Shown: positions 25,630-40,720 of the stretch, one piece after another | Layout of the letters: each line of letters opens with the position of its first letter | How positions within the stretch are numbered: position 1 is the first letter of the stretch | DNA from: a virus | Lineage: Duplodnaviria > Caudoviricetes | DNA: 41,175 bases | IMG/VR virus record: IMGVR_UViG_3300020045_012955 | Span: 1 to 41,175 of that record | Direction: 5' to 3' (one strand) | Notes under the pieces: generated by a model | Database searches by the model: none | The model's input: only the letters and a program-made list of their open reading frames with translations | What the model was told of the DNA's origin: nothing | Position numbers and translations under genes: made by a program

Positions 25630-25857
25630 AATTAAGCGGTTAAGTTCTCCCCGCTTGTTTCCCTTCCTCGCCGCCTTGTGAGTAAGCGAGGAGGAAAGGA
25701 ACACAAGACCTATAGAGCGACCTGTAAGCAGGTCAGAGAGCCACATGGCGTTGAGGGAAGCCCTGTGGGAAGCGCAAGCACGATTTAGTAGTTTGACTAA
25801 CATAAAACTTGCGCTTCCCAGGTGGACTGCCCAGACGGTTGCAGCTCTCTTTGCTCT
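25630..25857 (-). ncRNA. Long structured 5' leader or small RNA of the leftward transcript
   Basis: Perfect 13-bp stem 25766-25778/25808-25820; further stems 25719-25734, 25665-25692, 25634-25656. Confidence 0.45.
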
Positions 25858-25863
25858 TTTGCT

Positions 25864-25892
25864 AGGTTAGCAGGTGTACAAGGTTGTGTCAA
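25864..25892 (-). promoter_or_regulatory. Leftward promoter PL
   Basis: Minus strand TTGACA-N17-TAACCT with an extended -10 TG. Confidence 0.75.
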
Positions 25893-25918
25893 ACAAGAGG
25901 GTGTGGACAAGTGTACAA

Positions 25919-25946
25919 TGGACAAAGATTCTTTCTATGGTATATT
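25919..25946 (+). promoter_or_regulatory. Rightward promoter PR (leaderless)
   Basis: TGGACA-N16-TATATT with an extended -10 TG; ATG 7 nt later at 25954. Confidence 0.7.
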
Positions 25947-25953
25947 GCCCGTA

Positions 25954-26112
25954 ATGCCAGAGGAAACGCGGAGGAATAGGGAAATCTTCGATTACAATGT
26001 AAAGGGTCTCGGAGCACGGAGGCTTGCCAAAGTGTACAATATTACCCCACAAAGGGTGAGTCAGATTATTAAGGCACAACGTAAGAAAGTTTCCCCGGGA
26101 AACTCGAACTAA
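25954..26112 (+). CDS. Small HTH regulator (Mor/Cro-like), 52 aa
   Basis: RRNREI...GARRLAKVYNITPQRVSQII. Confidence 0.75.
   Translation: MPEETRRNREIFDYNVKGLGARRLAKVYNITPQRVSQIIKAQRKKVSPGNSN
26088..26104. repeat. 17-bp palindrome AGTTTCCCCGGGAAACT, copy 1
   Basis: Exact copy at the end of the HTH gene, 9 nt before the recA-like ATG. Confidence 0.95.
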
Positions 26113-26113
26113 C

Positions 26114-27031
26114 ATGTCCATCTTCAAAGCCTCTGAATCACCGTATCGAGACCTCACAGTTATCCCCACAGGCTTCTCTAAACTAGATTCCCTCATCGGG
26201 ATTGGTGGTATCCCCACACGGAAGATAACTGAGATCTCAGGGAAGTACTCGGTAGGTAAGACGACACTCGCACAGACTATCGTTGCCAACGCTCAAAAGA
26301 TGGGGATGCAATGCTTGTACGCTGACACTGAATTTTCCTTTGAAGAGAAGTATGCTGCGAGTCTCGGAGTTGACCTTGAGAAACTTGAACTGTGTATAAC
26401 TGACCACGCTGAAAAGCTGCTTGAAGAAATGGAGACTTGGGCAAAGGACCACGAGAACGCTGTTATTGTTCTTGACTCAGTCGGTGGACTACTTGCCCGA
26501 GATGAAGCGGAGAAGGAGACCGGGGCACGTGTCATCGGAGGACAAGCTAAACTCGTTGCTACCTTCACCAGAAAGATGGTTCCAATACTTGCCATCAACA
26601 ACATTGCACTCATTGTCCTTAACCACCTTGTCCTTGATGTGATGAATGGAAATCTCCATACCAGTGGGGGGTGGAAATTGGCATACCACAAAAGCCTCGA
26701 AATTCGCCTCTCCAAGACAAAAAACGTCATTAAGCGTGGGGAAGCCATCATCGGTCGTGAAATCGAAGCTAAGGTGGCAAAAAACAAGCTAGGCGGCATG
26801 CCAGACAACGACGTGAGTCTCCAAATGCTCTATGGCGCTGGATTCAGTGTCGCAGCGGATACGCTCGGTGAAGCAATCGACAAGGGAATCATCCAGCGTA
26901 AAGGAGCCTCGTTCTTCATGGATGGGGAGAAGATTGCCCACGGTCAGGACAACATGAGGAAGATGCTGAAAGAAGATGAAGAACTAACTGCGCGTGTCCT
27001 AGAGAGGATCTCTCAGATATCCACAACATGA
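26114..27031 (+). CDS. recA: RecA/UvsX-like recombinase
   Basis: IPTGFSKLD...GIGGIP, Walker A GKYSVGKTT, DTE, Walker B IVLDSV, SGG, VAKNK. Confidence 0.9.
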   Translation: MSIFKASESPYRDLTVIPTGFSKLDSLIGIGGIPTRKITEISGKYSVGKTTLAQTIVANAQKMGMQCLYADTEFSFEEKYAASLGVDLEKLELCITDHAEKLLEEMETWAKDHENAVIVLDSVGGLLARDEAEKETGARVIGGQAKLVATFTRKMVPILAINNIALIVLNHLVLDVMNGNLHTSGGWKLAYHKSLEIRLSKTKNVIKRGEAIIGREIEAKVAKNKLGGMPDNDVSLQMLYGAGFSVAADTLGEAIDKGIIQRKGASFFMDGEKIAHGQDNMRKMLKEDEELTARVLERISQISTT

Positions 27032-27055
27032 AGATGAAGATTCAGTGAAATCGTA

Positions 27056-27064
27056 TGTTATTGT
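27056..27064 (+). promoter_or_regulatory. Extended -10 promoter upstream of the replication module
   Basis: TGtTATTGT, 6 nt before ATG 27071; near-DnaA box ATATCCACA at 27017-27025. Confidence 0.55.
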
Positions 27065-27070
27065 ACGTGG

Positions 27071-27145
27071 ATGAGTCTAGGACACTCGAAGATTATTAAC
27101 GGCCTGAATATCGTCCTAGACGTTCAGGCCTTTAAGAGTCTTTGA
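27071..27145 (+). other. Leader uORF (24 aa) overlapping a hairpin/pseudoknot
   Basis: MSLGHSKIINGLNIVLDVQAFKSL*; stem GGCCTGAA/TTCAGGCC; loop GTCCTAGAC is complementary to GTCTAGGAC at 27075-27083. Confidence 0.55.
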
Positions 27146-27147
27146 GT

Positions 27148-27858
27148 ATGGCGCAACGTAGAATGTTCAGCCCAGAGATAGTCGGAAGTGAGGAGTTTAA
27201 GACAATGCCGATGTCATCTCAGGCACTTTATTTCCATCTTGGAATGGATGCTGATGATGATGGCTTCATTCAGCCAAAGCTCTTGATGAGAGCAATCGGG
27301 TTTACTGATGATGACCTGAAAGTACTCCTCGCAAAGAGATTTCTACTGCAATTCGGAAATGGTGTTGTTGCGATAAAACACTGGCTTATTCATAACATGA
27401 TCCGTTCTGACCGTTATAAGCCTACAAGATACGTTGAAGAGAAGAACTCTCTTTTCATCAAGGAAAATAAGGCTTATACAGACCGGCAACCAAATGGCAA
27501 CCAAATGGCACCACAGGTTAGGTTAGGAGAGGTTAGTAAAGGTAATACTAGCGAAATTAAAATTTCGCAAATTATTGAGATAACCCCTGAAGAGGAGAAG
27601 GAGCCACGTAAGAGGCAAGATACAGCGTATCGTGAGATATTCGATCTGTGGGGCAAGTACCCACTTTCATGGCGCACCAACAGGAGCATGATACAGGCCG
27701 CCAAAAATCTACTTGCTAGTAGGAGTCGTCAGGATTTAGTGGATGCCCTTGATTTTGCAAAGAAGCACGCCAATGATGGTTTTTGTCCTCAGATACTCTC
27801 ACCCTGGGATTTAGACAGTAAGTGGGAGAAATTAGTAGCCTATAGCTTAAAAAAATAA
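27148..27858 (+). CDS. Phage replisome organiser / replication initiator
   Basis: MAQRRMFS...SSQALYFHLGMDADDDGF...IKHW..HN.I..DRY N-terminal domain; iteron-encoded linker. Confidence 0.85.
   Translation: MAQRRMFSPEIVGSEEFKTMPMSSQALYFHLGMDADDDGFIQPKLLMRAIGFTDDDLKVLLAKRFLLQFGNGVVAIKHWLIHNMIRSDRYKPTRYVEEKNSLFIKENKAYTDRQPNGNQMAPQVRLGEVSKGNTSEIKISQIIEITPEEEKEPRKRQDTAYREIFDLWGKYPLSWRTNRSMIQAAKNLLASRSRQDLVDALDFAKKHANDGFCPQILSPWDLDSKWEKLVAYSLKK
27485..27568. other. Candidate replication origin (iterons) inside the initiator gene
   Basis: GGCAACCAAAT twice (27485, 27496) plus a partial third copy, GGTTA repeats, inverted repeat GCGAAATT-AA-AATTTCGC (27551-27568). Confidence 0.6.
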
Positions 27859-27859
27859 T

Positions 27860-28216
27860 ATGGTCTGGAATAAAAAAGAGGACGGGGTAGAGAAACCAAC
27901 TAAGATAGAGATTTCACCAAAGGAGATCGAGAACTTGCGTGAAGCTCTCAAACCATACAAGCAAAAGCGTATTCAAGGTGTCCTGGTATCAAGATTTGAC
28001 CAGTACCTCCTAGACCTTGGAACCACCGTCATGCGTGATGGTGATATACGAGTCAAAGATCCTGTTGGATACACGAAGATGTCAAAGATAAACGCCAAGA
28101 TGGAGATACTGGACGATTACCGTGCCGAGGACATTTTCAAGACCTTCCCCGAGGAGAGAAAGAAGTTCCAGGAGAAAATAAGAGCCTTGGGAAATAAGCT
28201 CAGGATGGGTGTATGA
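27860..28216 (+). CDS. Hypothetical protein, 118 aa
   Basis: Starts 1 nt after the initiator stop; K/E-rich. Confidence 0.65.
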   Translation: MVWNKKEDGVEKPTKIEISPKEIENLREALKPYKQKRIQGVLVSRFDQYLLDLGTTVMRDGDIRVKDPVGYTKMSKINAKMEILDDYRAEDIFKTFPEERKKFQEKIRALGNKLRMGV

Positions 28217-28659
28217 CTCCCCAATCACTCCTCGACACAGCTCGACAGCTTAACTCCGAAGCGGAGAAGAATATCTTGGAACTGGGACTCGTCCTTCTCA
28301 AGATCCATGAGACCAACGCATACGAGCATGAGGCAGCCACCTTCTCCCAGTGGTGCCAGGAAGAGCTAGGCCGCAGTAAGGGATTCGTATCTAAGCTCCT
28401 GATATCAGCGACATTCCTGAAGACCCACGCAGTTTCCCCGGGAAACTTGCCGGGACTCACCGCCACCAAGCTCTACACGGCCATCAACAGCTTCCCCGAT
28501 GAGAAGCCCGACTACATCCTCGCCGCAGCAACCAACAACACCAGGGATGAACTCATCGAAGAGAAGAGAGAGAGGAAGATGGGGTCAGGCCACGAGCACA
28601 CTCCCAAGGATGAACAGCGATACGCAATCTGCAGCTGCGGTAAATGGTTAAAAGTATGA
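28213..28659 (+). CDS. HTH DNA-binding protein (DUF3102/partition-protein-like) with a C-terminal Zn motif
   Basis: ELGLVLLKI...Y...TFSQWCQEELGRSKGFVSKLL; HEH...CSCGK; contains palindrome copy 2. Confidence 0.6.
   Translation: MTPQSLLDTARQLNSEAEKNILELGLVLLKIHETNAYEHEAATFSQWCQEELGRSKGFVSKLLISATFLKTHAVSPGNLPGLTATKLYTAINSFPDEKPDYILAAATNNTRDELIEEKRERKMGSGHEHTPKDEQRYAICSCGKWLKV
28431..28447. repeat. 17-bp palindrome, copy 2
   Basis: Exact AGTTTCCCCGGGAAACT just after the HTH codons. Confidence 0.95.
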
Positions 28660-29150
28660 CCGATGACATCCGAGTCGTGACCATGAAGCCTCGCCGTTCG
28701 CGTAAAATTAAGCGTAGCAAAGCGAAACGTGAAAAGTCGATATCAGCTCTGGTCAAAGAATTAGATGCGCTGGTGAGCCGTGTAGTGCGTTTGGGGGCAT
28801 GTGATAGTGAAGGAATGGTGAAGTGCTACACATGTGGGTATAAAACCCACTACAAGAAAATTCACTGTGGTCACTACATCAGCCGATTTTATAAAGAGAC
28901 CCGGTGGGACTTACGAAACCTCCGACCTCAATGCTTTAACTGCAATATCTACCGCAAAGGGAATGCGGTTAGTTTCAGGCAGAAATTAGTTGAGGAATAT
29001 GGGGAGGAGGAAATAAAAGAGATGGAAAAGAGTGTGGATTTTTTGGTACGAGGTGGGAAGACAAGGGAATGGCTTGAGAAAAGCATCGAAATTGAGAAGA
29101 AATCACTAGAAACGCTTGAAAGTGAGTTATCCACAGAGATGAAAATTTGA
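28656..29150 (+). CDS. NinG/Rap-like recombination endonuclease
   Basis: LDALVSRVVR, CYTCG, HCGHYISR, TRWDLRNLRPQCFNCN. Confidence 0.85.
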   Translation: MTDDIRVVTMKPRRSRKIKRSKAKREKSISALVKELDALVSRVVRLGACDSEGMVKCYTCGYKTHYKKIHCGHYISRFYKETRWDLRNLRPQCFNCNIYRKGNAVSFRQKLVEEYGEEEIKEMEKSVDFLVRGGKTREWLEKSIEIEKKSLETLESELSTEMKI

Positions 29151-29172
29151 TGAAGAAAAGTCGTGATAACCT
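29127..29172 (+). promoter_or_regulatory. DnaA box plus extended -10 promoter of the glycan cluster (leaderless)
   Basis: TTATCCACA (29127-29135), TGaTAACCT (29164-29172), ATG 6 nt later. Confidence 0.6.
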
Positions 29173-29178
29173 ATCGGA

Positions 29179-30357
29179 ATGGAAGTGAAAAAGGTTAAAG
29201 TATCTCTCCCGAAGAACAAGTATTACTCGAAAATCGAGATAAATGACGACGGACTTAACCTTGAATTGAAGAAAAAGAAGAAAGTTGCCCTCCTTTTGAT
29301 AGGACTGAACACACACTACTGGCCATACCTTAAACAGATAATTGAGGACGCCAGACAGCATTTTTTGCCACAACACAACGTTGATTACTACGTGTGGACA
29401 GATATTCCTGAGTCCGATAAAGACTTGGAAAAGAAGCTCGCAGCCCACCCCACTGAGGAGCAGATAGGGCAGCTACGAGAGTTCGCCAAAGACTCCGACG
29501 ACCTCATTCAGATACAGAAGCTCATTTCACGTGAAAAGCTCATGGAGGTGGTGAACTTCATGCGTGCAAAGAAGGACATTGTGATAACAGAAACAGACCC
29601 CCTCGAACACCGCTTCTGCACGCTCATGCGCTACCACCTCTTCCTCGGCAAGGAGAAGGAGTTGAAGGGCTACGAGTACCTGTTCTATGTCGATGTGGAT
29701 ATGCGCATGGTATCCAAAATCAGCGATGAGGTTTTAGGTCAGGGACTCACCTGTGCAGAGCACCCGATGTACTCACTTGCCCCAAAGTACATCCCCCCAT
29801 ACGAGCCAAACAACAAGTCCACGGCATTCATTCCACGACTCGGCCAAGTGATTGAGGATGCGAAAGGAAAACGATTCCGACCCTTGTACCTTGCCGGTGG
29901 ATTCCAGGGTGGAAAGACAAAGCCATTCATCAAAGCAATGAAGGTGATGAAGAAGAGAATCGACAAAGATCTCGACAGTAACTACGTGGCAATTTGGAAT
30001 GATGAATCCCACTGGAACAGATACCTCTTTGACTACAAAGGTGATTTGACCGTCCTATCACCCGCCTACATCTACCCTGATTCTCTCATCAAGGAATACT
30101 ACGAACCATTGTGGGGACGTGCCTACGAACCAAAGATAATCACCATCACGAAGCCCTTCATGCTTTCAAAGGCAGCAGGAATTGAATTGCGGGAGCAGAT
30201 GGGAATCAATCAAGACCACACGCCTATCCTCCTAGCCAACAAGATTCAATGTGAGAAGTGTGGCGATGTCATGCAGCAGAAGAACATGCACCTCAAACGA
30301 GTCATTTCGTGTGAAGGATCTGGTAAGCCCCACCAGCTTGAAATGAAACCTCTATGA
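29179..30357 (+). CDS. Glycosyltransferase family 6 (ABO/alpha-1,3-Gal/GalNAc transferase-like)
   Basis: YVWTD, TLMRYHLF, FYVDVDM, YLAGGFQGG, AIWNDESHWNRY, LSPAY. Confidence 0.88.
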   Translation: MEVKKVKVSLPKNKYYSKIEINDDGLNLELKKKKKVALLLIGLNTHYWPYLKQIIEDARQHFLPQHNVDYYVWTDIPESDKDLEKKLAAHPTEEQIGQLREFAKDSDDLIQIQKLISREKLMEVVNFMRAKKDIVITETDPLEHRFCTLMRYHLFLGKEKELKGYEYLFYVDVDMRMVSKISDEVLGQGLTCAEHPMYSLAPKYIPPYEPNNKSTAFIPRLGQVIEDAKGKRFRPLYLAGGFQGGKTKPFIKAMKVMKKRIDKDLDSNYVAIWNDESHWNRYLFDYKGDLTVLSPAYIYPDSLIKEYYEPLWGRAYEPKIITITKPFMLSKAAGIELREQMGINQDHTPILLANKIQCEKCGDVMQQKNMHLKRVISCEGSGKPHQLEMKPL

Positions 30358-30572
30358 GAAAGAAGCGTTTTCTCTTCCCAAGCAAAAAGACAATCGGTCG
30401 CACAGTATCGATACCCCTGAATGATGATACCCCTTGGCAGGAACAGATTGCAGCGGCAATAAAAAGCTACCATGACACCTACACCTTCCCTAAAGGAGTT
30501 GAAATTGGTTACTCAATACATTCAGGCATGAAGGGCTATGCGATTATCACTTTTCTAAAGCGAAACAACTAA
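30354..30572 (+). CDS. Hypothetical protein, 72 aa
   Basis: ATGA overlap with the GT6 gene. Confidence 0.55.
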   Translation: MRKKRFLFPSKKTIGRTVSIPLNDDTPWQEQIAAAIKSYHDTYTFPKGVEIGYSIHSGMKGYAIITFLKRNN

Positions 30573-30578
30573 TTCACT

Positions 30579-30695
30579 ATGAGAAAGAGAAAGAAGCCAG
30601 CAGAGAATCATCCGTGGAAACTCGATCACATCGGAGACCTAAAGAATTCAATCAAGAGTGGATTCGTCTTACGCCAACCACTTAAAATAAAATGA
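30579..30695 (+). CDS. Small basic peptide, 38 aa
   Basis: MRKRKKPAENHPWK...; its stop overlaps the next ATG (ATGA). Confidence 0.45.
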   Translation: MRKRKKPAENHPWKLDHIGDLKNSIKSGFVLRQPLKIK

Positions 30696-31366
30696 ACTTC
30701 TCAATCATCATCCCCTCATATGGACAAGTTCGCTACCTACGGGAAGCGATTGAGTCAGCGCTTGCACAGACCGTGAAGTGCGAAGTGATTGTGGTCGATG
30801 ATGGTTCGACCGACGGCTCACTCAAGATTGCAGAAGAATATGCAGACAGGCTGAAGGTAATCAAACAGGTGAACAAAGGACTCGCCGCAGCACGTAACAC
30901 TGGTATCATGAACGCAACGGGAGACTGGATACTCCCACTCGACGCTGACGATATTTTAATGGTGAATTGTGTTGAGAAACTCATGGAACTTCACACGAAA
31001 TATCCTGATGCAGATGTACTCGCCCCATCATTCCAAACTATTGGAGTCGTCCAGGAACACATCACCCTCATGCAGGAACCAAGGTTAGAACATTTCCGCA
31101 CCGCAAACAGAATCGGCTACTTCTCAGCAATCAGGAAATCAGTCTTACATGAAGTTGGTGGCTACTCATCACGGATGGAAGAAGGGTACGAGGATTACCA
31201 CCTGTGGTTCAACCTCCTCACCCGAGGAAAGAGGATAGTAACGACTCCTGAGATTCTCGTGCTCTACCGAACGAAGGAGGAATCAATGTGGAGGAACGCA
31301 GTGAAGCATCACGTGAAGTTGATGAATCAAATTTATAAGGACTTCCCTCAAATTTTACCTGTATGA
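30692..31366 (+). CDS. GT2 glycosyltransferase
   Basis: SIIIPSY, VVDDGSTD, GLAAARNTG, LDADD, YEDY. Confidence 0.92.
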   Translation: MNFSIIIPSYGQVRYLREAIESALAQTVKCEVIVVDDGSTDGSLKIAEEYADRLKVIKQVNKGLAAARNTGIMNATGDWILPLDADDILMVNCVEKLMELHTKYPDADVLAPSFQTIGVVQEHITLMQEPRLEHFRTANRIGYFSAIRKSVLHEVGGYSSRMEEGYEDYHLWFNLLTRGKRIVTTPEILVLYRTKEESMWRNAVKHHVKLMNQIYKDFPQILPV

Positions 31367-31956
31367 AAGTAAGCATTTGTGTTCCCTACCACGATACTCC
31401 AAAGACAGCCTTCTTCCTGTCACGCCTTCTCAATTCAATTGCAGAGCAGACGTTCACAGACTATGAAATCGTCCTCGTGAAGAAAGGGAGAATGGCAGAG
31501 ACCTACAACGAAGCAATCAAGCAGTGCAAAGGTGAAATCATCAAGCTCATGGGCATGGATGACTACTTCACGGATAAGTATTGCCTGGAAGAATTAGTAC
31601 AGAAGTTTGATGAAGGAGCGAAGTGGGTAGCGAGTGGCTGCATACATGACGATGGGAGTGGATATAAGAATCCCCACCAACCTTCATGGAATGACAAACT
31701 GTACGCAGGGAACAATACGCTCGGCGGTTTCTCTGTCATCACGCTCCTCAATGGCGATGTCCCGAAGATAGATGAGACCCTGGATTGGGTCGTGGACTGT
31801 GAGTGGTACTGGAGACTCTTTCAGAAGTGGGGAGAACCAACACTCTTCAAAGAAATGAATGTTGTCATCGGTATTGGCGATCACCAGACTACTAATAATT
31901 TATCAGATGAACAAAAGATGCGTGAATACGCATTAGTACAAAACAAGTATGGTTAA
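31363..31956 (+). CDS. GT2-like glycosyltransferase
   Basis: VSICVPY, NEAIKQCKGEIIKLMGMDD, VDCEWY. Confidence 0.8.
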   Translation: MKVSICVPYHDTPKTAFFLSRLLNSIAEQTFTDYEIVLVKKGRMAETYNEAIKQCKGEIIKLMGMDDYFTDKYCLEELVQKFDEGAKWVASGCIHDDGSGYKNPHQPSWNDKLYAGNNTLGGFSVITLLNGDVPKIDETLDWVVDCEWYWRLFQKWGEPTLFKEMNVVIGIGDHQTTNNLSDEQKMREYALVQNKYG

Positions 31957-32974
31957 ACGTCTTTTACTCACAGGAATTGGAGGAAGTATTGGTGCTCACT
32001 TCTTGGCACACATCATGCACAACACCAACTGGGAGGTGGTGGGTATTGATTCATTCCGTCACAAGGGATGGATGGACAGAGTAGTCGAGATTACCTCGGA
32101 GCATGAGGATTGGCAGAAGCGAATAAAGATTATCGTCCACGACATGAATGCGCCGTTCTCACCACTCACGGTGAAGAAGATTGGCCACATTGATTACGTC
32201 ATCAACATGGCGTCCCTCTCGGATGTCGAAGCAAGTATCCAGGATCCTGTCCCTTTCATTCAGAACAACGTGAATTTAATCCTTAACATGCTCGAATATG
32301 CGCGGGAAACAAAACCAGAAATATTCCTTCAGATTTCAACAGACGAGGTTTATGGAGCAAGTGCAAGTAAATTTGGAGATCTTCGGAAAGAGTGGGACGC
32401 AATCATACCCTCGAACCCTTACGCAGCTTCCAAAGCGTGCCAGGAAGCGATTGCAATCTCTTATTGGAGAACTTATGGAGTGCCTCTCATCATCACCAAC
32501 ACGATGAACAACTTTGGGGAGCTACAGCAACCCAACAAGTACCCCGTGATGATTCAGCGTGCGCTCATCGACGATAAGGAAATTACCATCCACGGCAAGG
32601 AAGGACTCATCGGCTCACGATCCTACATACACTCACGTAACTTCGCTGATGCGGTGCTGTTCCTACTCAAGAATTGTCCTCCCCACATGCACGTGCCTAA
32701 CACCGCAGACCGTCCTGACCGCTACAACATCGCAGGTGATAAACAGCTCGATAACTTGGAACTCGCACAGGTGATTGCGAAACTCATGGGGAAGACATTG
32801 AAATACAAGCTCGTGGATTCACACACGGCTCGTCCCGGCCACGACCCGCACTACGGCCTCGACAGCACCAAACTGTACTCACTCGGATGGAAGCCACCAC
32901 TCACCTTCGAGGAGAGTCTTAAAAATACGCTGGACTGGCAGACAGCACATAAGGAGTGGATACAGGATGTATGA
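31949..32974 (+). CDS. NDP-hexose 4,6-dehydratase (RmlB-like)
   Basis: TGIGGSIG, STDEVYG, PSNPYAASKA, NNFG, RPGHD. Confidence 0.88.
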   Translation: MVKRLLLTGIGGSIGAHFLAHIMHNTNWEVVGIDSFRHKGWMDRVVEITSEHEDWQKRIKIIVHDMNAPFSPLTVKKIGHIDYVINMASLSDVEASIQDPVPFIQNNVNLILNMLEYARETKPEIFLQISTDEVYGASASKFGDLRKEWDAIIPSNPYAASKACQEAIAISYWRTYGVPLIITNTMNNFGELQQPNKYPVMIQRALIDDKEITIHGKEGLIGSRSYIHSRNFADAVLFLLKNCPPHMHVPNTADRPDRYNIAGDKQLDNLELAQVIAKLMGKTLKYKLVDSHTARPGHDPHYGLDSTKLYSLGWKPPLTFEESLKNTLDWQTAHKEWIQDV

Positions 32975-33570
32975 GAAAGGTACGGCAGGAAATTGGCGGA
33001 TTAGGTAATCTCCTCTTCAAAGAGGCATACATCTGGTCACAGTTTCGTGACAGTGAAATCCCTGACATCTACGTTCAGTCCATGAAGTATTGGGAGAAGT
33101 ACCGAGAAGAGATACGCAACCGATTTGGAAATGGCATAGGGAAGGTAGACCGTATTGCTCTTCACATTCGTCGTGGGGATTACCTCAAAGTCTCGCAGTT
33201 CCACCGTGACCTATGGGAGACCGACTACTACAAAGAAGCAGTGAAATTGTTTCCCGGGGAAAAGTTCCTGGTGTTCTGTAAGGACAACCAGAGTGGACAA
33301 CAAGATGAGGATGACCGGGTGTGGTGTATGGATAACATGCCATTCCTCCTCCCTGCAGACCGCTACGAAATGTATAACCACACCACTGAGACTGACGACC
33401 TCAACGCCATGGCAAGTTGCAAAGGAATCATTGGAGCTAACAGTTCGTTCTCATGGTGGGCAGCATTCCTTGGAGACAACGACAAGAAGGTAGTCATGCC
33501 ACGAGCTGACAGATGGTTTGTGGATAAGAAAATTCGCTGTGAATTACCAAGTGAGTGGACAACGCTATGA
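32971..33570 (+). CDS. GT11 alpha-1,2-fucosyltransferase-like
   Basis: GGLGN, HIRRGDY, ANSSFSWWAAFL. Confidence 0.88.
   Translation: MRKVRQEIGGLGNLLFKEAYIWSQFRDSEIPDIYVQSMKYWEKYREEIRNRFGNGIGKVDRIALHIRRGDYLKVSQFHRDLWETDYYKEAVKLFPGEKFLVFCKDNQSGQQDEDDRVWCMDNMPFLLPADRYEMYNHTTETDDLNAMASCKGIIGANSSFSWWAAFLGDNDKKVVMPRADRWFVDKKIRCELPSEWTTL
33248..33264. repeat. Degenerate, opposite-orientation copy of the 17-bp palindrome (14/17)
   Basis: TGTTTCCCGGGGAAAAG. Confidence 0.45.
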
Positions 33571-34559
33571 AGGTGTTGATAACTGGGTCACTCGGACTCA
33601 CCGGGCAAGCATGTGTTGACCTCTTCCTTTCAAAAGGATGGGAAGTCATAGGAGTTGATAGGAATATGCGCTCCCATTTCTTTGGGACTGAAAAACAGTA
33701 CGCAAAAGCAGGACAAGAGAACATCCACTTTGACATTGATATACGAGACCTCGTGACAATGGAGGAGCTGTTTGAGCAACACACATTCAACGCCATCATC
33801 CACGCCGCAGCGCAGCCAAGCCACGACTATGCCACTGAGCACGTCCTAGAAGACTTCGATGTTAACGCACGAGCTACTGTCATCCTCTTTGAACTTGCGC
33901 GTAAGTATTGCCCTGACGCAGTCATCGTCCATGTGTCCACAGACAAAGTGTATGGGGAGAGAATGTTCGATGACTTGAAAGAATCAGATACAAGGTACGA
34001 GCCTATGTTCAAAGTGTGGGGATTCAATGAGGAGTTAGGACTCGACTTCGCAGGAGACCGCAGTTTCTTTGGCTGTTCCAAAGCAGCAGCAGATATGTAC
34101 GCACAGCAGTACGCTGCACGGGGAATGAAGGTAGGCATCTTCCGCCCTGGCTGTATCACTGGGAAAGTCCACCAAGGGGCAGAACAACATGGCTTCCTTG
34201 CTTACCTCGCTAAATGTATTAAGGAAGGCAAGACCTACAAGATTTTTGGTCACAAAGGGAAACAAGTGAGAGACCAGATACACGCTAGTGACCTTGCTCG
34301 TGCGTTCTGGCATTACATCAATACTCCTTGGCCGGGAGAGGTGTACAATATCGGAGGAGGACCTTTGCGCAGTGTTTCAATTCTCGAAGCAGGTGCGATG
34401 ATAGCAGAGAAGACAGGGAAAGAATTCAAGTATGAAATCCATGAGGCTCGTAAGGGAGACCGAGTATGGGATGTCCACGACACTTCAAAGTTCAGGAAGC
34501 ACTATTCCTTTTGGAAGCAGAAGTACACATTACAAGCAATAATAGATGACCTTTTATGA
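33567..34559 (+). CDS. NAD-dependent epimerase, CDP-paratose/tyvelose 2-epimerase-like
   Basis: TGSLGLTG, HAAAQPSHD, STDKVYG, FGCSKAAAD, GKQVRD. Confidence 0.82.
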   Translation: MKVLITGSLGLTGQACVDLFLSKGWEVIGVDRNMRSHFFGTEKQYAKAGQENIHFDIDIRDLVTMEELFEQHTFNAIIHAAAQPSHDYATEHVLEDFDVNARATVILFELARKYCPDAVIVHVSTDKVYGERMFDDLKESDTRYEPMFKVWGFNEELGLDFAGDRSFFGCSKAAADMYAQQYAARGMKVGIFRPGCITGKVHQGAEQHGFLAYLAKCIKEGKTYKIFGHKGKQVRDQIHASDLARAFWHYINTPWPGEVYNIGGGPLRSVSILEAGAMIAEKTGKEFKYEIHEARKGDRVWDVHDTSKFRKHYSFWKQKYTLQAIIDDLL

Positions 34560-35746
34560 GTTATAGATGGATGTACGGTGGCGCTCTCATTGGTAAAGAA
34601 GAGAAGGCAGCCATAATGAAGTTTGTTGATAAGAATTGGTGGCCTTTCGCAGAAGAAGGAGCAAAGTTTGAAGAAGAAGCAGCTAAATATCTAGGAACAA
34701 AATATGCAATCGCAGCAAACTCAGGATCGTCAGCAGGATTACTCGCCCTCGCCGCTCTTGAACTTCCGAGAGGACATGAGGTCATTATACCCGCTACGAC
34801 ATTTCCTACTATTTTTAATATTATTGTTCAGCTCGGGCTTGTCCCTGTTGTGGTGGATTCTAAGGTAGGAACCTATAACCTAGACCCGGATGAGATAGAA
34901 AGCGCTCTTTCACCAAAGACAAAGGCAATCATCTGTGTGCACGCAGTCGGCAACCCCTGTGATATGCCGAAGATTATGAAGATAGCTAAGAAACATAACT
35001 TGTATGTCATTGAAGATAATTGTGATGGGTGGGGAGGAACAATACACGGAAGAAGAGTTGGCAGTTTTGGACATCTCTCGTTTACGTCCTTCCACGCAGC
35101 CCATATTGTTGCAATGGGTCAAGGCGGTGGTGTCTTCACGAACGATAAAGAAATTGCCAGTAAGGTGCGCATGTACCGAGATTGGGGAAGGCAAAAGGAC
35201 ACCTCAAGCCGTACGAATCACAAGTGGCCAACCCTTCCAACTGACTACGACTCCCGATTCATCTATGAAAAGATGGGCTGGAACCTTTCGCCCTTGGAGT
35301 TACAAGCTGCAATGGGACGAGTCCAACTGAAGAAGACTGAGAACATCAAGAAGCGTCGCAGAGCGAACTACGAATACCTGTACAAACACCTCTCGCAGTT
35401 CAATGACCTCATCATGCCAACACCGATGAAAGGCGCTGACCCGTCATGGTTCTCTTTCCCGCTTACCTGTCTAGGTCCCCGAGGTCCACTCGTAGCACAC
35501 CTCGAAGCATGTGGCATTGAAACAAGGTCGATGTTTGCAGGGAACATTCTGAAGCACCCAGGCTATCTGAAAGTGAAGCACCGAAAGGGAACGAGCCTCA
35601 TGGAGGCTGACTTCATCCTTCATCAGAGCTTTTGGATACCATGTCACCCCCGCTACAAGCCGAGTGACCTTAAGGGAATTATTGACGCATTCAAAGAATA
35701 CTATGCTACGGCTTCCACAGGTGACTCTCATCGCATTGACGAATAA
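34556..35746 (+). CDS. DegT-family PLP/PMP enzyme, RfbH/DdhC-like NDP-4-keto-6-deoxyhexose 3-dehydrase
   Basis: NSGSSA, TFPT, IEDNCD, SFHAAHIVAMGQGG (His in place of the Schiff-base Lys), RDWGR, ETRSMFAGN. Confidence 0.82.
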   Translation: MSYRWMYGGALIGKEEKAAIMKFVDKNWWPFAEEGAKFEEEAAKYLGTKYAIAANSGSSAGLLALAALELPRGHEVIIPATTFPTIFNIIVQLGLVPVVVDSKVGTYNLDPDEIESALSPKTKAIICVHAVGNPCDMPKIMKIAKKHNLYVIEDNCDGWGGTIHGRRVGSFGHLSFTSFHAAHIVAMGQGGGVFTNDKEIASKVRMYRDWGRQKDTSSRTNHKWPTLPTDYDSRFIYEKMGWNLSPLELQAAMGRVQLKKTENIKKRRRANYEYLYKHLSQFNDLIMPTPMKGADPSWFSFPLTCLGPRGPLVAHLEACGIETRSMFAGNILKHPGYLKVKHRKGTSLMEADFILHQSFWIPCHPRYKPSDLKGIIDAFKEYYATASTGDSHRIDE

Positions 35747-36293
35747 GGACTTTGAAGGACATCAGCGAGCACTTAAGAAATCATGTGAAGGCATTGAATG
35801 GGGAGCAACAAAACTAATCTGGGATGAAGGAATCAAATCAATCGATGACTGGAATTACAAGATAATCTATGAACTCCACAACTATGTTCAAACAGATTAC
35901 GCGTTTCTATTCCACGCTGACGGATTCGTATGTGACCCCCTACAGTGGCGTGAGGATTTTCTACGATACGATTTCATTGGCGCTCCGTGGCCTCTACCGC
36001 GCGATAACTACTCGTACCGAACGCCCGAAGGCGAGCTTATTCGAGTCGGAAACTCAGTGGGAATCCGCAGTAGACGCCTCCTTCAGCTACCCTCATTTCT
36101 CAAGATACCGTGGAAAAGCTACTATGGGAACACAAACGAAGACGGATTTCTCTGTGTCCACAATAGGAAGCTCCTCGAAAGCCACGGGTGCACATTTGCA
36201 CCTATCCAAGTCGCCAAGCACTTCAGCAAAGAACATGAAATCGAAGAGAACCAAGGCATCAAAACCTTTGCGTTCCACCAAGTAGATACATGA
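35703..36293 (+). CDS. DUF5672-like putative glycosyltransferase
   Basis: HADG, YDFIGAPW, VGNSVGIRSR, NEDGF, FAFH. Confidence 0.7.
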   Translation: MLRLPQVTLIALTNKDFEGHQRALKKSCEGIEWGATKLIWDEGIKSIDDWNYKIIYELHNYVQTDYAFLFHADGFVCDPLQWREDFLRYDFIGAPWPLPRDNYSYRTPEGELIRVGNSVGIRSRRLLQLPSFLKIPWKSYYGNTNEDGFLCVHNRKLLESHGCTFAPIQVAKHFSKEHEIEENQGIKTFAFHQVDT

Positions 36294-37006
36294 GTACACT
36301 AATCACAGGACATCGAGGCTTTATAGGACGTAAGCTCGCAAAGGAGTTACGTGGGGCTAAAGGTATTGATGTACGATCTGGGGATAACCTCCTCACCTGT
36401 CAGTTACCCAAAGGAATCGATACCATCTTCCACCTTGCAGCGCAGTCAGACGTAGCCGCCTCATGGCGTGACCCACTCCATGACCTCGACAATATCCGCA
36501 TCACCGCACGATTGGTACACGCCTACCCTGATGTGAAGATTATCTATGCCAATTCCTGTGCCTCAATGGATAAGAAATCACCGTACGGTTTCTCTAAATG
36601 GGCATCAGCGGAGTATCTGAAGAGCTTCCACACCAACTATGTGGATTGTGTATTCCCCAACATCTTTGGTGAAGGTTCTCGCAGTGTTGTAGATATATTC
36701 AAAGGGAAAGAGAAGGTGACGATATACGGCAATGGACAGCAGACGCGAGACTACGTGCATGTCGATGACATTGTTCGTGGACTCTTGATGGCAGTGAACT
36801 GGAAACCAGGAACGTACTACATGGGAAGTGGGAAGAGCACCACGGTACTCGAACTGGCGAAGGGAAAAGAGATTGTGTTTGCACCGCACAGACGTGAAGC
36901 ATTTGACGTGAGAGTCCCGAACACCACACCACACGGGACTTGGAAGCCAATGATTGAGGTGTTAGAGTATTTGAATGAGAGACCAGAGAGGAGAGAAAAA
37001 TTGTAA
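36290..37006 (+). CDS. Compact NAD-dependent epimerase/reductase (extended SDR)
   Basis: TGHRGFIG, HLAAQ, SPYGFSK, GQQTRDYVHVDD. Confidence 0.85.
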   Translation: MSTLITGHRGFIGRKLAKELRGAKGIDVRSGDNLLTCQLPKGIDTIFHLAAQSDVAASWRDPLHDLDNIRITARLVHAYPDVKIIYANSCASMDKKSPYGFSKWASAEYLKSFHTNYVDCVFPNIFGEGSRSVVDIFKGKEKVTIYGNGQQTRDYVHVDDIVRGLLMAVNWKPGTYYMGSGKSTTVLELAKGKEIVFAPHRREAFDVRVPNTTPHGTWKPMIEVLEYLNERPERREKL

Positions 37007-37376
37007 TTGGAAGCCGGATTCAACGAATTATTCGACTATTCATAAATGGATTGTAAGAGAGTTTGGCAAAGCAACAGAATGTAAATTCTGTGATAATAAA
37101 ATGGCAAAGAGATACGAATGGGCTTTGAGGAAGGGACGCGAATACAAGCGCGATGTTAATGATTTTATTCAGCTGTGTACTTCGTGTCACCATAAGTACG
37201 ATGGACATGTCAAAAACCTGCCTCGTCCTAAATTGACTGCCGAAATTGTGAGAGAGATAAGGAAGGAATTTACTGACAGACGTGGTGAATTGACGAGGCT
37301 TGGCAAAAAATATGGAGTTACTTACTCAAATATAAGAATGATAGTAGACAGGAAGCGGTGGTCTAATCTATGTTAG
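36975..37376 (+). CDS. HNH-like endonuclease with a C-terminal HTH
   Basis: YSTIHKWI, CKFC, LCTSCHHKYD, KLTAEIVREIR...LGKKYGV. Confidence 0.7.
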   Translation: MRDQRGEKNCNWKPDSTNYSTIHKWIVREFGKATECKFCDNKMAKRYEWALRKGREYKRDVNDFIQLCTSCHHKYDGHVKNLPRPKLTAEIVREIRKEFTDRRGELTRLGKKYGVTYSNIRMIVDRKRWSNLC

Positions 37377-38119
37377 CGTGCATCTTTCATAAAGGTAGTG
37401 GCCTTGGAGACCAGCTCCACCGCTATATCACCGTAAAGACTCTCGCACAGAGTAAGGGACGGGACTTTGGTGTAGTTTCCCCGGGAAACTTCAAGGGAGC
37501 CTCGTTCATGAATCTTGATATGGGGGCAACCCCACCTGAGGGGATGACCCAGTGGATGGAGAAGGACGTACGCGACGCAGAAGGCGATGATATTCGTAGC
37601 TATGACCCTGAAATCAATTTCGTAAAGGACAACACACTGATAGATGGGTACTTCGAGGATGATAAATACTGGAGATGGAGATTGGGAGTGATAACGAACT
37701 GGCTCAAAGTAGAACCACTCGACATCTCAGATAACACCTGTGTCATTGGATTTAGAGGTGGGGAGTTCTCAACTGACCCACGCCTGTTCCTCCCTTTGGG
37801 CTATTGGAACACAGCCATAGACCTTATGAAGTCACAGAATCCCCACCTCACCTTCGAGGTGCATACCGATGATGTAGAGAGGGCAAAGGCCTTCTTTCCT
37901 GACTTCCCCTGTGTTCACGATATAGGCACGAACTGGCGCTCTATCCGCTACGCACGCTACTCAATCATTGCAAATTCAGCGTTCTACATCATGCCGCGAA
38001 TACTGGCGCACTATCACAACAATAAAGCATTTACCATTGCTCCCCGAGGGTGGGCACGAGCAAACATCGGTAAGTGGGCACGACCTGCTTGCTACTATCC
38101 TGAATTTTTATATGTGTAG
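37370..38119 (+). CDS. Second, divergent GT11-like glycosyltransferase
   Basis: GSGLGDQL, DGYFED, FRGGE, IIANSAF, IAP. Confidence 0.72.
   Translation: MLACIFHKGSGLGDQLHRYITVKTLAQSKGRDFGVVSPGNFKGASFMNLDMGATPPEGMTQWMEKDVRDAEGDDIRSYDPEINFVKDNTLIDGYFEDDKYWRWRLGVITNWLKVEPLDISDNTCVIGFRGGEFSTDPRLFLPLGYWNTAIDLMKSQNPHLTFEVHTDDVERAKAFFPDFPCVHDIGTNWRSIRYARYSIIANSAFYIMPRILAHYHNNKAFTIAPRGWARANIGKWARPACYYPEFLYV
37474..37490. repeat. 17-bp palindrome, copy 3
   Basis: Exact AGTTTCCCCGGGAAACT. Confidence 0.95.
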
Positions 38120-38312
38120 TGTCGTCATTAAAATCAAGAAAGGACAGATATGGAGAAGTAAGACATCCGGTAGGCAATACCTCGTTGTCTCACGCACAAA
38201 GACAGACAGGTGGCGTACGGTAGAATTGACCAATAAACCGGGGAGGTACTCTTCGACGCACTCGTTCCTCCCTATTGTCTTAAATAAGAAGTTTGAACTA
38301 ATGAATGCATGA
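38112..38312 (+). CDS. Small basic hypothetical protein
   Basis: IKKGQIWRSK; coupled overlaps with neighbours. Confidence 0.55.
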   Translation: MCSVVIKIKKGQIWRSKTSGRQYLVVSRTKTDRWRTVELTNKPGRYSSTHSFLPIVLNKKFELMNA

Positions 38313-38773
38313 AAAAATGTATTAAATGTAACAAGGAATTTGTTAAGCCAACGAGATATAGTTGGCGACAATGGGACGAAAAGAAATTGTGTTCAAGGCA
38401 ATGTGCTGCTATCTATTACCATGAAAATTATCGTCATTCGTCCGAGACCAGAGAGAAATTACGCTTGGTTCACTTAGGGAAACCACAGCCTTGGAAAGAA
38501 GGCAGCAAGAGCCATCTCTGGAGGGGAGGGCGCACTAAAGAGGTTATATTGCTACGAGAGTCTGCACGCTACGGAGCCTGGAGGCGAGCCGTCTACGAGA
38601 GAGATAACTGGACTTGCCAGGAGTGCAAACAACGCGGAGGTAGACTCAATGCTGACCATATTAAATCCTTTGCGAGGTTTCCTTCTCTACGATTCGAGTT
38701 AGAGAATGGGAGAACGCTCTGCGAGGATTGCCATAGGAAGACACCAACATTTGGAGGGAGATCACGAGTATGA
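38309..38773 (+). CDS. HNH endonuclease with a NUMOD3-like motif
   Basis: HSSETREKL, WRRAVYERDNWTCQEC, ADHIK, NGRTLCEDCH. Confidence 0.88.
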   Translation: MKKCIKCNKEFVKPTRYSWRQWDEKKLCSRQCAAIYYHENYRHSSETREKLRLVHLGKPQPWKEGSKSHLWRGGRTKEVILLRESARYGAWRRAVYERDNWTCQECKQRGGRLNADHIKSFARFPSLRFELENGRTLCEDCHRKTPTFGGRSRV

Positions 38774-39423
38774 ATAAAATACCTGCAATTTTAATTAACT
38801 ATTGTTCGGACCCCACGTGGTTAAAAGACTATCCACAGCTTGATGTGACGCTCTATGATCGCTCTGATGATGGAGTACCGAGAGATTTAACCGTGTATGG
38901 AAAGGTGATACGTAGCCCGAACCTTGGAGATGTGGACTTCGATAAATTAACGTGGCTCGTAGAGAACTATGACAACCTACCTGAGGTATTTGTGTGGGGC
39001 AAATCGAACCTCTTTAAGTTTGTAGACCAAGAAAGTTTTAACAAAAGTGTTCAAAAGAGTTTATTTGCCCCACTCCTTAAACTAGACCATAAAACCTACT
39101 ATGACCAATACGGAGAGGTGTGTAAGTACGTGGGGACAGAGCATGGAGCGATGTACGCAGAACGTGCAGACTCGTGGTACTTCAATGCAGGATTAGACAA
39201 TAAGGGGAACTTCAGATCATGGCACGAATGGGCGTATGCCTTCAGATTGCCCGTAGAAGCCTTTGTTCCATTCCCTCCTGGTGGAAACTACATTCTGACC
39301 AGAGAACGTGTCCTACGCCATTCTAGAGACCTCTACGATGAAATGAGAAGCACACTCAACTATGCAGCGCACCCAGTAGAGGCGCATTGCTGTGAACGCA
39401 GTTATTTCTATCTATGGCGATAG
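38770..39423 (+). CDS. DUF3431-like putative glycosyltransferase
   Basis: PNLG, ENYDNLPE, FPPGGNY, HCCERS. Confidence 0.6.
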   Translation: MNKIPAILINYCSDPTWLKDYPQLDVTLYDRSDDGVPRDLTVYGKVIRSPNLGDVDFDKLTWLVENYDNLPEVFVWGKSNLFKFVDQESFNKSVQKSLFAPLLKLDHKTYYDQYGEVCKYVGTEHGAMYAERADSWYFNAGLDNKGNFRSWHEWAYAFRLPVEAFVPFPPGGNYILTRERVLRHSRDLYDEMRSTLNYAAHPVEAHCCERSYFYLWR

Positions 39424-40196
39424 TCGATGTATTTACCTACAACGGAGAACGAGATGTATTACGCATCCACCTATCAGCTACCCCCTGGGTAGATAAGTAC
39501 ATCATTTGTGAGAGTAAGACTACCTTCACGAGGAAACCTAAGGAACTGTATTTCTTCAGAGACCAGAGATATTTCAAACAGTGGTGGCCTAAGATTGATT
39601 ACTACGTCATCAATGATAACTATTCTGATGAGGAGTTAAAATTGGCTCAACAAAGCCCTAATACAGTAGGTGCTGACCATTGGACTTGGGAGTTCTTGCA
39701 AAAGGAGAGAATAAAGAAGGGATTGGTGTCCTGCGGCGTGCAGGATGATGACCAAGTGTATATAGGGGATGTGGATGAGATACCCGAACAAGTTTCCCCG
39801 GGAAACTCACCCCTGAAGCTCAAGCTACGAGTCTATGCCTACTACCTAAACAACCGCTCAAATGAAGAGTTTTGGGGCACCTATGTAGCCCCGTATCGCT
39901 ATATAAAAGACAAGATACTGAATCACGAGCGTAGCAGGACTGATATACGCACCGAGGACTATAAAGGCTGGCACTTCACCTCAATGGGTGGCTATGATGA
40001 AGTAAAGCGTAAGCTCGAATCATCCTATACCGCAGAAAGCTATTACACCCCTGAAGTCCAAGCCCACCTCAAAGAGAGACTTGGATCGGGCACCGATTAT
40101 ATGGGTAGGAATTTCACCTTTACCCTCAATGAGGCAGAATGGCCCGATTATATTAAGAATAATCGAGCCAAGTACCGCCATTTACTCCGAGATTAA
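39414..40196 (+). CDS. GT17 (beta-1,4-GlcNAc transferase III-like)
   Basis: ESKTTFT.KPK, GDVDEIP, GWHFTSMGG, KLES. Confidence 0.82.
   Translation: MAIVDVFTYNGERDVLRIHLSATPWVDKYIICESKTTFTRKPKELYFFRDQRYFKQWWPKIDYYVINDNYSDEELKLAQQSPNTVGADHWTWEFLQKERIKKGLVSCGVQDDDQVYIGDVDEIPEQVSPGNSPLKLKLRVYAYYLNNRSNEEFWGTYVAPYRYIKDKILNHERSRTDIRTEDYKGWHFTSMGGYDEVKRKLESSYTAESYYTPEVQAHLKERLGSGTDYMGRNFTFTLNEAEWPDYIKNNRAKYRHLLRD
39791..39807. repeat. 17-bp palindrome, copy 4
   Basis: Exact AGTTTCCCCGGGAAACT. Confidence 0.95.
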
Positions 40197-40417: not shown

Positions 40418-40720
40418 TTATTTCGTAATTTTGTGTGGGCATATACCCTTGTTGTTGCGTCTTCCGATATTGCAGTTAAAACAGAGTATTTGTATTCCCG
40501 TCGGGTACTGTAGCCTTATCAAGGTTTCGTAAAGGGCGTATCCCTTGTATCTTGTGTTTGCTGTCCCGTGTTCTTTCCCGTTGTTTTCAATGTGGTCAAC
40601 CGTAAGAAGTTTTACGGTGCTCTCACCGCAACAAGCACAAGATTGTCCGTAATGAGCGAGTATTTTGTGCAAATACTCAATAGCCTCGAGGCGTTGAGCC
40701 TCTTTTTCTTTTTTAGTCAT
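40418..40720 (-). CDS. HNH-like zinc endonuclease, 100 aa
   Basis: YG..CACCGE, LTVDHIENNG, QILCFNCN, CPH. Confidence 0.8.
   Translation of the reverse strand: MTKKEKEAQRLEAIEYLHKILAHYGQSCACCGESTVKLLTVDHIENNGKEHGTANTRYKGYALYETLIRLQYPTGIQILCFNCNIGRRNNKGICPHKITK

Follow-up and report, generated by a model that had tools for sequence, protein, structure and literature searches.

We analysed a linear virus record, IMG/VR IMGVR_UViG_3300020045_012955 (Duplodnaviria; Caudoviricetes), whose full 41,175 nucleotides are called the window below, for a family of 17-bp palindromes that recurs inside its genes. The record is 95% complete and encodes a terminase, an SU10-type portal, a major capsid protein, RecA, a DnaD-like loader, NinG and a glycosyltransferase cluster. 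Because its 5′ end lies within the terminase frame and a terminal repeat is absent, the record lacks about 2 kb of sequence surrounding the terminase genes. The palindrome, AGTTTCCCCGGGAAACT, occurs in four exact copies and one variant, and one of the genes that carry it encodes a protein that we predict to read it:

26088–26104, no strand: site 1, exact; final codons of a small Mor-like helix-turn-helix (HTH) gene, with 9 bases between the site and the recA start codon
28213–28659, + strand: likely reader, 148 amino acids (aa); predicted ParB/Noc/KorB-type HTH, no CTPase domain found
28431–28447, no strand: site 2, exact; in the likely reader's gene, coding for the linker after the recognition helix
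33248–33264, no strand: site 3, variant with 3 mismatches (14/17) and the opposite centre base; in the GT11 gene, in another frame (FPGEK)
37474–37490, no strand: site 4, exact; in ORF 37370–38119, no significant Pfam family
39791–39807, no strand: site 5, exact; in the GT17 gene, in a hypervariable loop

All five positions had been reported in a first-pass annotation made from the window alone, and they hold up: with 3 or fewer mismatches, 0.24 matches are expected from shuffled sequence, and 0/100 shuffles reached five. No other family of 12–17-mers reaches four copies in the window. The half-site core TTTCCC is present in 10/10 half-sites of this genome, and the sites are single and dispersed, 2.3–4.8 kb apart. 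A scan of the window found no other 1-bp-centre copy at up to 3 mismatches left of 26 kb, so that the reported confinement to the 26–40 kb arm is right for this genome, but it does not extend to relatives, in which sites are genome-wide. As reported, the exact copies (4/4) read VSPGN in one common frame, whereas the variant reads FPGEK in a different one. The assignments of the sites to GT17 and HTH genes were also correct; the GT11 gene by Pfam, however, is ORF 32956–33570, which holds the variant, and ORF 37370–38119 has no GT11 match.

Sequence comparisons indicate that selection acts on the DNA of the sites and not on the encoded peptide, on the combined grounds of identical wobble bases, a symmetric triple change and frame switching. 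First, identical codons in three further copies, flanks included, have a chance of ~2e-13 under the codon usage of the window. Second, contigs from runs X1–X4 come from relatives at small word shares, not from this phage itself, and around site 2 those of X1 and X4 differ from the window at 16/149 and 17/158 bases. They share three changes within the site that produce a perfect 18-bp palindrome and the reading VSPGK; the same protein cluster in the databases holds VSPGKL (P0083–P0085) alongside VSPGNL (P0001–P0003). The peptide thus varies in close orthologues, yet a perfect palindrome stays. Third, the GT17 loop of 7/7 nearest sequences (74–100% identity, the window's included) could encode the 13-bp core TTTxxC-N-GxxAAA, through VSxGN or, in another frame, through F[HP][GR]E, compared with 9/113 distant homologues; this comparison covers the best 120 of 632 homologues and peptide sequences only. 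The encodable-core test is specific to this motif, as a generic test for the longest encodable palindrome failed to discriminate. The alignment with X4 also skips 25857–26086, in the diverged small HTH gene, and picks up again at site 1, which shows no change among the 40 differences listed. In a loose end of X4, the letters behind a site give a translation resembling the end of SSB. The window lacks a site at that place; the related records G005, G007 and G415 have one there.

We next considered the protein encoded by ORF 28213–28659, one of the candidates named in the first-pass annotation. It has a long N-terminal helix, a predicted HTH domain at residues ~16–127 with a recognition helix at 53–66, and a C-terminal His/Cys knuckle, and it matches no significant Pfam family; its relatives number 46 at the 50% level, with 41 matches by profile. 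Its structural model (pLDDT 93) was ranked by re-alignment of the 164 chains returned by Foldseek, with KorB 8qa9 (Z 6.5, r.m.s.d. 5.5, 94 aligned) and Noc 7ol9 (6.5, 3.5, 101) at the top, followed by Noc 6y93 (6.2, 3.5, 101), ParB 6sdk (6.1, 3.1, 98) and KorB 1r71 (5.9, 2.9, 86). Beyond these five, Z drops to 4.8 and then 3.1, and the alignment covers only the DNA-binding domain of the ParB-family chains. On this moderate evidence we predict that the protein consists of a ParB/Noc/KorB-type DNA-binding domain standing on its own, a point that had previously been overlooked. PF02195 (ParB_N) was not found in six frames of the record at E up to 1, in a search whose control found 11/14, and Pfam assigned a ParA family to none of the 64 ORFs scanned, in line with the first-pass annotation.

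Site 2 codes for the linker directly after the recognition helix, GRSKGFVSKLL, and the 13-bp core is encodable in 11/79 linkers of the family versus 7/708 control segments. Matches to DUF3102 (PF11300) were absent from ORF 28213–28659 and present in 2/48 family members (best E 0.068), the protein of relative G416 gives a weak one (E 0.002, 13.4 bits versus a Pfam cut-off of 24.4), and DUF3102 clusters occur among the Atlas neighbours of the family. Locus scans with the single protein and with a small alignment found nothing, nor did tblastn of cultured phages. From sequence and modelled structure, ORF 28213–28659 probably binds the five palindromes, and it likely sits on them as a dimer, in line with the earlier proposal that they are loading sites of a dimeric protein.

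Ten other records carry the reader gene, of which eight were reached through the gene, G415 through RecA and G416 through DNA, the last two after the site pattern had been set; a RecA single-protein scan led to distant recA loci only and was not used. Copies of TTTYNC-N-GNRAAA number 3 in G001, 7 in G005, 6 in G006, 5 in G007, 4 in G008, 7 in G415 and 12 in G416, so that 7/10 gene-bearing records hold 3–12 copies versus 0.1–0.2 expected and 0–2 for a reversed control. Half-site pairs with a 2-bp centre add five in G416, three in G003 and one each in G005, G006, G007 and G415. In G005, G415 and G416 the sites are spread genome-wide, mostly within genes, structural genes included. A copy at the linker corresponding to site 2 is found in G001 and G416 (2/10 relatives) and is degenerate in 3/10.

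The half-site differs by lineage, being TTTCCC here, TTTCGC in G001, G416 and G008, and TTTCAC/TTTTAC in G005–G007 and G415. The G416 terminase is 60–72% identical to the TTTCAC group, and its HTH protein and core go with G001; the RecA of G001 belongs to the TTTCAC group, whereas its HTH protein and core pair with G416. These two discordances argue that the half-site tracks the reader protein and not terminase or RecA. In a DNA-first test, 50/118 loci were entered and 43 records examined, each chosen by one site. The reader gene was present only in G416 (1/43), with its 12 copies; the remaining records hold 1–4, the selected one included, among them the eight others that are at least 90% complete. 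G417 (45% complete) has 4 sites, and the gene was not found in its record.

The surroundings of the gene also recur. NinG lies just 3′ of it in the window and in at least six relatives, and methylases flank it in G005 and G007. Ahead of their terminase genes, G415 and G416 encode fusions of ParB_N to a methylase, and G006 has a similar protein; the equivalent position falls in the region absent from the window record. In addition to its stand-alone HTH gene, G007 encodes a full-length ParB_N and HTH protein beside SSB and an exonuclease (L155:7429–8307).

We located the exact 17-mer at 125 loci in metagenomes and at 70 in genomes; of the latter, 25 carry Planctomycetota titles. As the 70 genome-contig matches are close to chance (~69 expected), only these 25 titles and a link to parAB are informative. 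Among the 146 loci examined with flanks (76/125 metagenome and 70/70 genome loci), 30 have a parA or parB match, some of them being one element counted twice. The identical 17-mer clusters in up to 19 copies around repA-parA-parB, its centre is always 1 bp in the 17 such loci counted (loci chosen for one such site), and in 10/21 ParB loci a site lies 16–70 bp behind parB. An [IV]SK recognition helix, typically GKSKGEISKLL, is present in 16/20 full-length ParBs, against GRSKGFVSKLL in the phage protein and GKSRSHVANTM at the corresponding place of Caulobacter ParB. The profiles of the phage family and the locus ParBs align over 99 columns (probability 83%, E 8.5e-6). The 17-mer thus adjoins [IV]SK-helix proteins in two unrelated settings, phage and repA-parA-parB element, and this neighbourhood leads us to infer a link between helix and site. 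From these sequences, GTTTCCC-S-GGGAAAC is likely the parS of repA-parA-parB elements common in Planctomycetota, which the largely open-access literature covered, including the accessible part of PMC5352709, does not describe. The loci are:

Planctomycete-type loci, strand not given: L079:7915–10470, L069:8000–10160, L175:4957–6017, L216, L166, L182, L185, L197, L199, L210

Their ParBs often have R at the Noc R201 position, and in L175 GECR replaces GERR. Sutterella-type parAB elements (L037:5218–7940, L050, L075, L186, L201) carry the same site at least 2 kb from parB; the ParBs of this type (n = 4) have a different helix and lie >2 kb from the sites, where the reader may be another protein.

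Comparison with known systems (cited for the accessible part of each source) places the phage site closest to the KorB operator OB of RK2, ATTTTAGCGGCTAAAAG (PMC11790492). Both share the 13-bp core with its 1-bp centre (PMC11790492), KorB chains rank among the best structural alignments of the phage protein, and OB sites can lie far from promoters (PMC11790492). The 1-bp spacer, rightly pointed out by the first-pass annotation, is therefore not new, since OB has it. KorB differs in possessing a CTP clamp, in its partner KorA and in its role in partition, whereas no ParB_N or CTP-clamp domain was found in the phage protein, a stand-alone domain of 148 aa with a His/Cys knuckle; phage sites lie within genes and differ between lineages, and in relatives their centre can be 1 or 2 bp long. 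A 2-bp centre is also found in F sopC (PMC3597684).

The parS and Noc-binding (NBS) sites are unspaced, with half-sites GTTTCAC and ATTTCCC (PMC7383237), and the proposed kinship with them is borne out, as the outer G and inner CCC of the phage site combine features of both. ParB/Noc residues G170-K171-S172 (PMC7383237) align with phage G53-R54-S55. R173 and N178, in contrast, are K56 and K61 in the phage protein, the Q and R201 positions of Noc are K56 and T85 in a motif alignment, and neither the unspaced ATTTCCC-GGGAAAT nor the accompanying Q/K/K/R residues are found. Unlike parS, the phage site has a central spacer and is not clustered. What the window has of ParABS is an HTH domain, on moderate evidence; ParA, a CTPase domain and clustered sites were not found. 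The Planctomycete ParBs resemble the phage protein in having the same 17-mer next to their gene and in a recognition helix that is nearly identical, but are full-length ParB_N and HTH_ParB proteins with ParA and with sites clustered at the par locus. Recognition would work as in KorB–OB, yet the phage system is not a member of ParABS, KorB, Noc or DUF3102. Phage ParB_N-methylase fusions are described in a survey of ParB-CTPase folds whose main text, as far as accessible, makes no mention of DUF3102 (PMC12704722); the accessible parts of PMC4409726, PMC7022226, PMC5352709 and PMC7205306 contain nothing on this site. Such a phage protein–site system was not found in the literature, for which subscription journals lay mostly outside coverage.

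These observations allow us to propose a role for the palindromes, with more doubt than confidence: as probable docking sites of the 148-aa protein, they may serve to tag and organise replicating phage DNA as 'self'. A dimer of the reader on the palindromes would mark phage DNA at intervals of a few kilobases and, because it lacks a CTPase domain, would remain on its own site and not slide. The bound reader could then be a landing point for a partner, such as the NinG nuclease, a methylase or a host organiser. The in-gene copy would move with the reader gene on exchange, so that reader and site stay matched, and may also damp the gene's own expression. A lineage-specific half-site and a 1–2-bp centre, unlike unspaced chromosomal parS, would make the system private. 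Tagging is preferred because the sites of relatives are genome-wide, within genes and often at inherited positions, and because no clamp is found that could reach promoters. A more elaborate, rather improbable version would be a split ParB system private to phages, in which a stand-alone HTH protein labels DNA at sites derived from parS, with a shifted spacer and ignored by host ParB, and brings in, in trans, a ParB_N-methylase encoded elsewhere, NinG or host ParA/SMC, and in which a swap of the gene with its built-in site re-addresses the genome as a lineage self-label.

Several results weigh against this assignment of reader and role. Foldseek itself gave no significant match for ORF 28213–28659 (Noc and ParB rows at E 4.5–5.9), a sequence-profile search of the PDB was not significant and had no ParB among its rows, and Z scores below 8 may mirror a common helical arrangement. 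In the AT-rich G002–G004, sites with a one-base centre number only 0, 2 and 1. The in-gene copy is absent in 5/10 relatives (G005–G008, G415), where 0/31 linkers of their subfamily could encode the core. The helix of that subfamily, NPGHASIL, is very different although its site is similar, and the G008 protein, nearer to this subfamily, goes with a TTTCGC core; covariation of helix and core is consequently loose (8 genomes). No gene accompanies the 7 sites of G009, although that record stops before the gene's region in kin. The site pattern was drawn partly from the genomes in which it was counted, no complete related phage without the reader gene was found as a control, and coverage of only 26–40 kb in the window fits whole-genome tagging poorly.

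The remaining explanations turn in part on the genes around the first two sites:

25919–25946, + strand: promoter-like match upstream of site 1; at chance level (1 found versus 2.5 expected)
25954–26112, + strand: 52-aa Mor-like HTH protein (Mor E 4e-5), a rival reader
26114–27031, + strand: RecA-like gene, directly 3′ of site 1
28644–29150, + strand: NinG/Rap-like nuclease gene, recurring downstream of the reader gene

The strongest alternative, unlikely but worth taking seriously, keeps the same reader and makes it a KorB-like repressor or roadblock that damps the rightward replication–glycosylation operon and its own gene. All five window sites lie within one rightward gene run with site 1 just before recA, G007 has a site ~20 bases before its recA match, and KorB represses from OB sites of equal geometry (PMC11790492). 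Most sites, however, are deep within genes, including structural genes of relatives; the long-range action of KorB requires a CTP clamp (PMC11790492), and no such domain was found here; and the promoter-like match upstream of site 1 is what chance would give.

That the sites recruit a ParB-, Noc- or KorB-like factor of the host is improbable, and more so than repression. It would account for half-sites that equal those of parS or NBS, for cellular ParBs that adjoin the exact 17-mer and for phages with different helices that share similar sites, but the cores are phage-specific and track the phage protein in the two discordant cases. Its assessment also depends on the host. The KH protein of G415 matches 59/61 Patescibacteria genomes (to 45%) versus 5/31 Bacteroidota genomes (to 34%), a comparison limited to these two phyla, and Patescibacteria are a likely but unproven host group and serve as a lead. 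The host stays unproven because a search with the reader-family profile gave no match in 401 genomes from the phylum to which a Saccharibacteria metagenome-assembled genome belongs. In the same 401 genomes GTTTCNCNGNGAAAC occurs once in 17 and twice in none, similar to a control pattern (~22). Unspaced canonical parS is present in 12/101 Patescibacteria genomes and clustered in 6. If Patescibacteria are the host, a host ParB is therefore an unlikely reader, since parS is unspaced in the sampled genomes and the 1-bp form is not clustered in any of them, which leaves the earlier suggestion of host ParB recruitment weak. Two Patescibacteria contigs with paired 2-bp-centre sites have no ParB or reader-family gene nearby.

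Beside these data we note that one Patescibacteria genome (G055:C2–C4) has seven clustered canonical parS and four dispersed GTTTCGCGCGAAAC sites. The KH-domain gene is followed, by eye, by GroES- and GroEL-like genes in G415 (L368:7323–10048), and also in G005 and G007. Matches to the canonical 16-mer parS, with up to 3 mismatches allowed, are as frequent in the window as chance predicts. At 29525–29536, in the GT6 gene, the 12-bp core of canonical parS is perfect (TTTCACGTGAAA) but lacks the outer G and C; it may be chance or a host-ParB site, and G417 also has such a core (12908).

A true centromere of a plasmid-like prophage state (ParABS), the segregation role first suggested for the sites, is slightly less probable again. 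The identical site clusters up to 19-fold around repA-parA-parB, G007 encodes a full-length ParB_N protein, and the ~5% of the genome absent from the record leaves room for a gene; against this stand the lack of any ParA among 64 ORFs and of ParB_N in six frames, and sites that are single and kilobases apart. Doubtful to much the same degree, or a shade more, is the idea that another phage protein reads the sites. The obvious candidate is the 52-aa protein, an HTH protein with a site in its own gene, but that gene diverges in X4 while site 1 persists, and it has no tblastn match in 9 related records that have sites, although homologues of so short a protein may escape. A peptide-level repeat or chance, to which the common frame and peptide of four copies might point, is refuted by the identical wobble bases and by the symmetric triple change and frame switching of the orthologues.

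The palindromes are a real feature under DNA-level selection, and with a predicted but well-supported reader they extend the protein–site systems of the ParB family. An unnamed phage protein family (82 proteins) gains a specific predicted DNA target, and its natural variants (TTTCCC, TTTCGC and TTTCAC/TTTTAC; 1- or 2-bp centre) extend studies of ParB/Noc specificity. They raise the questions of what a ParB-type reading head does when it has no CTP clamp, and of why phages place sites in the loops of proteins at the expense of the peptide. A by-product is the proposed parS for a widespread Planctomycete repA-parA-parB element, and small orthogonal protein–site pairs could serve as DNA labels.

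Finally, the window has further features in and around the region of the sites. An inverted repeat with 8-bp arms at 27551–27568, in the DnaD-like replication gene, contains two TTTCGC half-sites in reverse arrangement and is a candidate origin element. The sugar-modification cluster (29179–40196) encodes GT6, two GT2, GT11, GT17, three epimerase/dehydratases, a DegT aminotransferase, DUF5672 and DUF3431. HNH and small genes at 36975–37376, 38309–38773, 40418–40720 and 30354–30572 are replaced or missing in close relatives: contigs of X1, X2 and X4 skip 30351–30577, those of X1 and X4 skip ~38316–38815, and X1 is divergent over 36881–37369. By eye, most start codons of the window are preceded by A/T-rich stretches without a clear Shine–Dalgarno motif.

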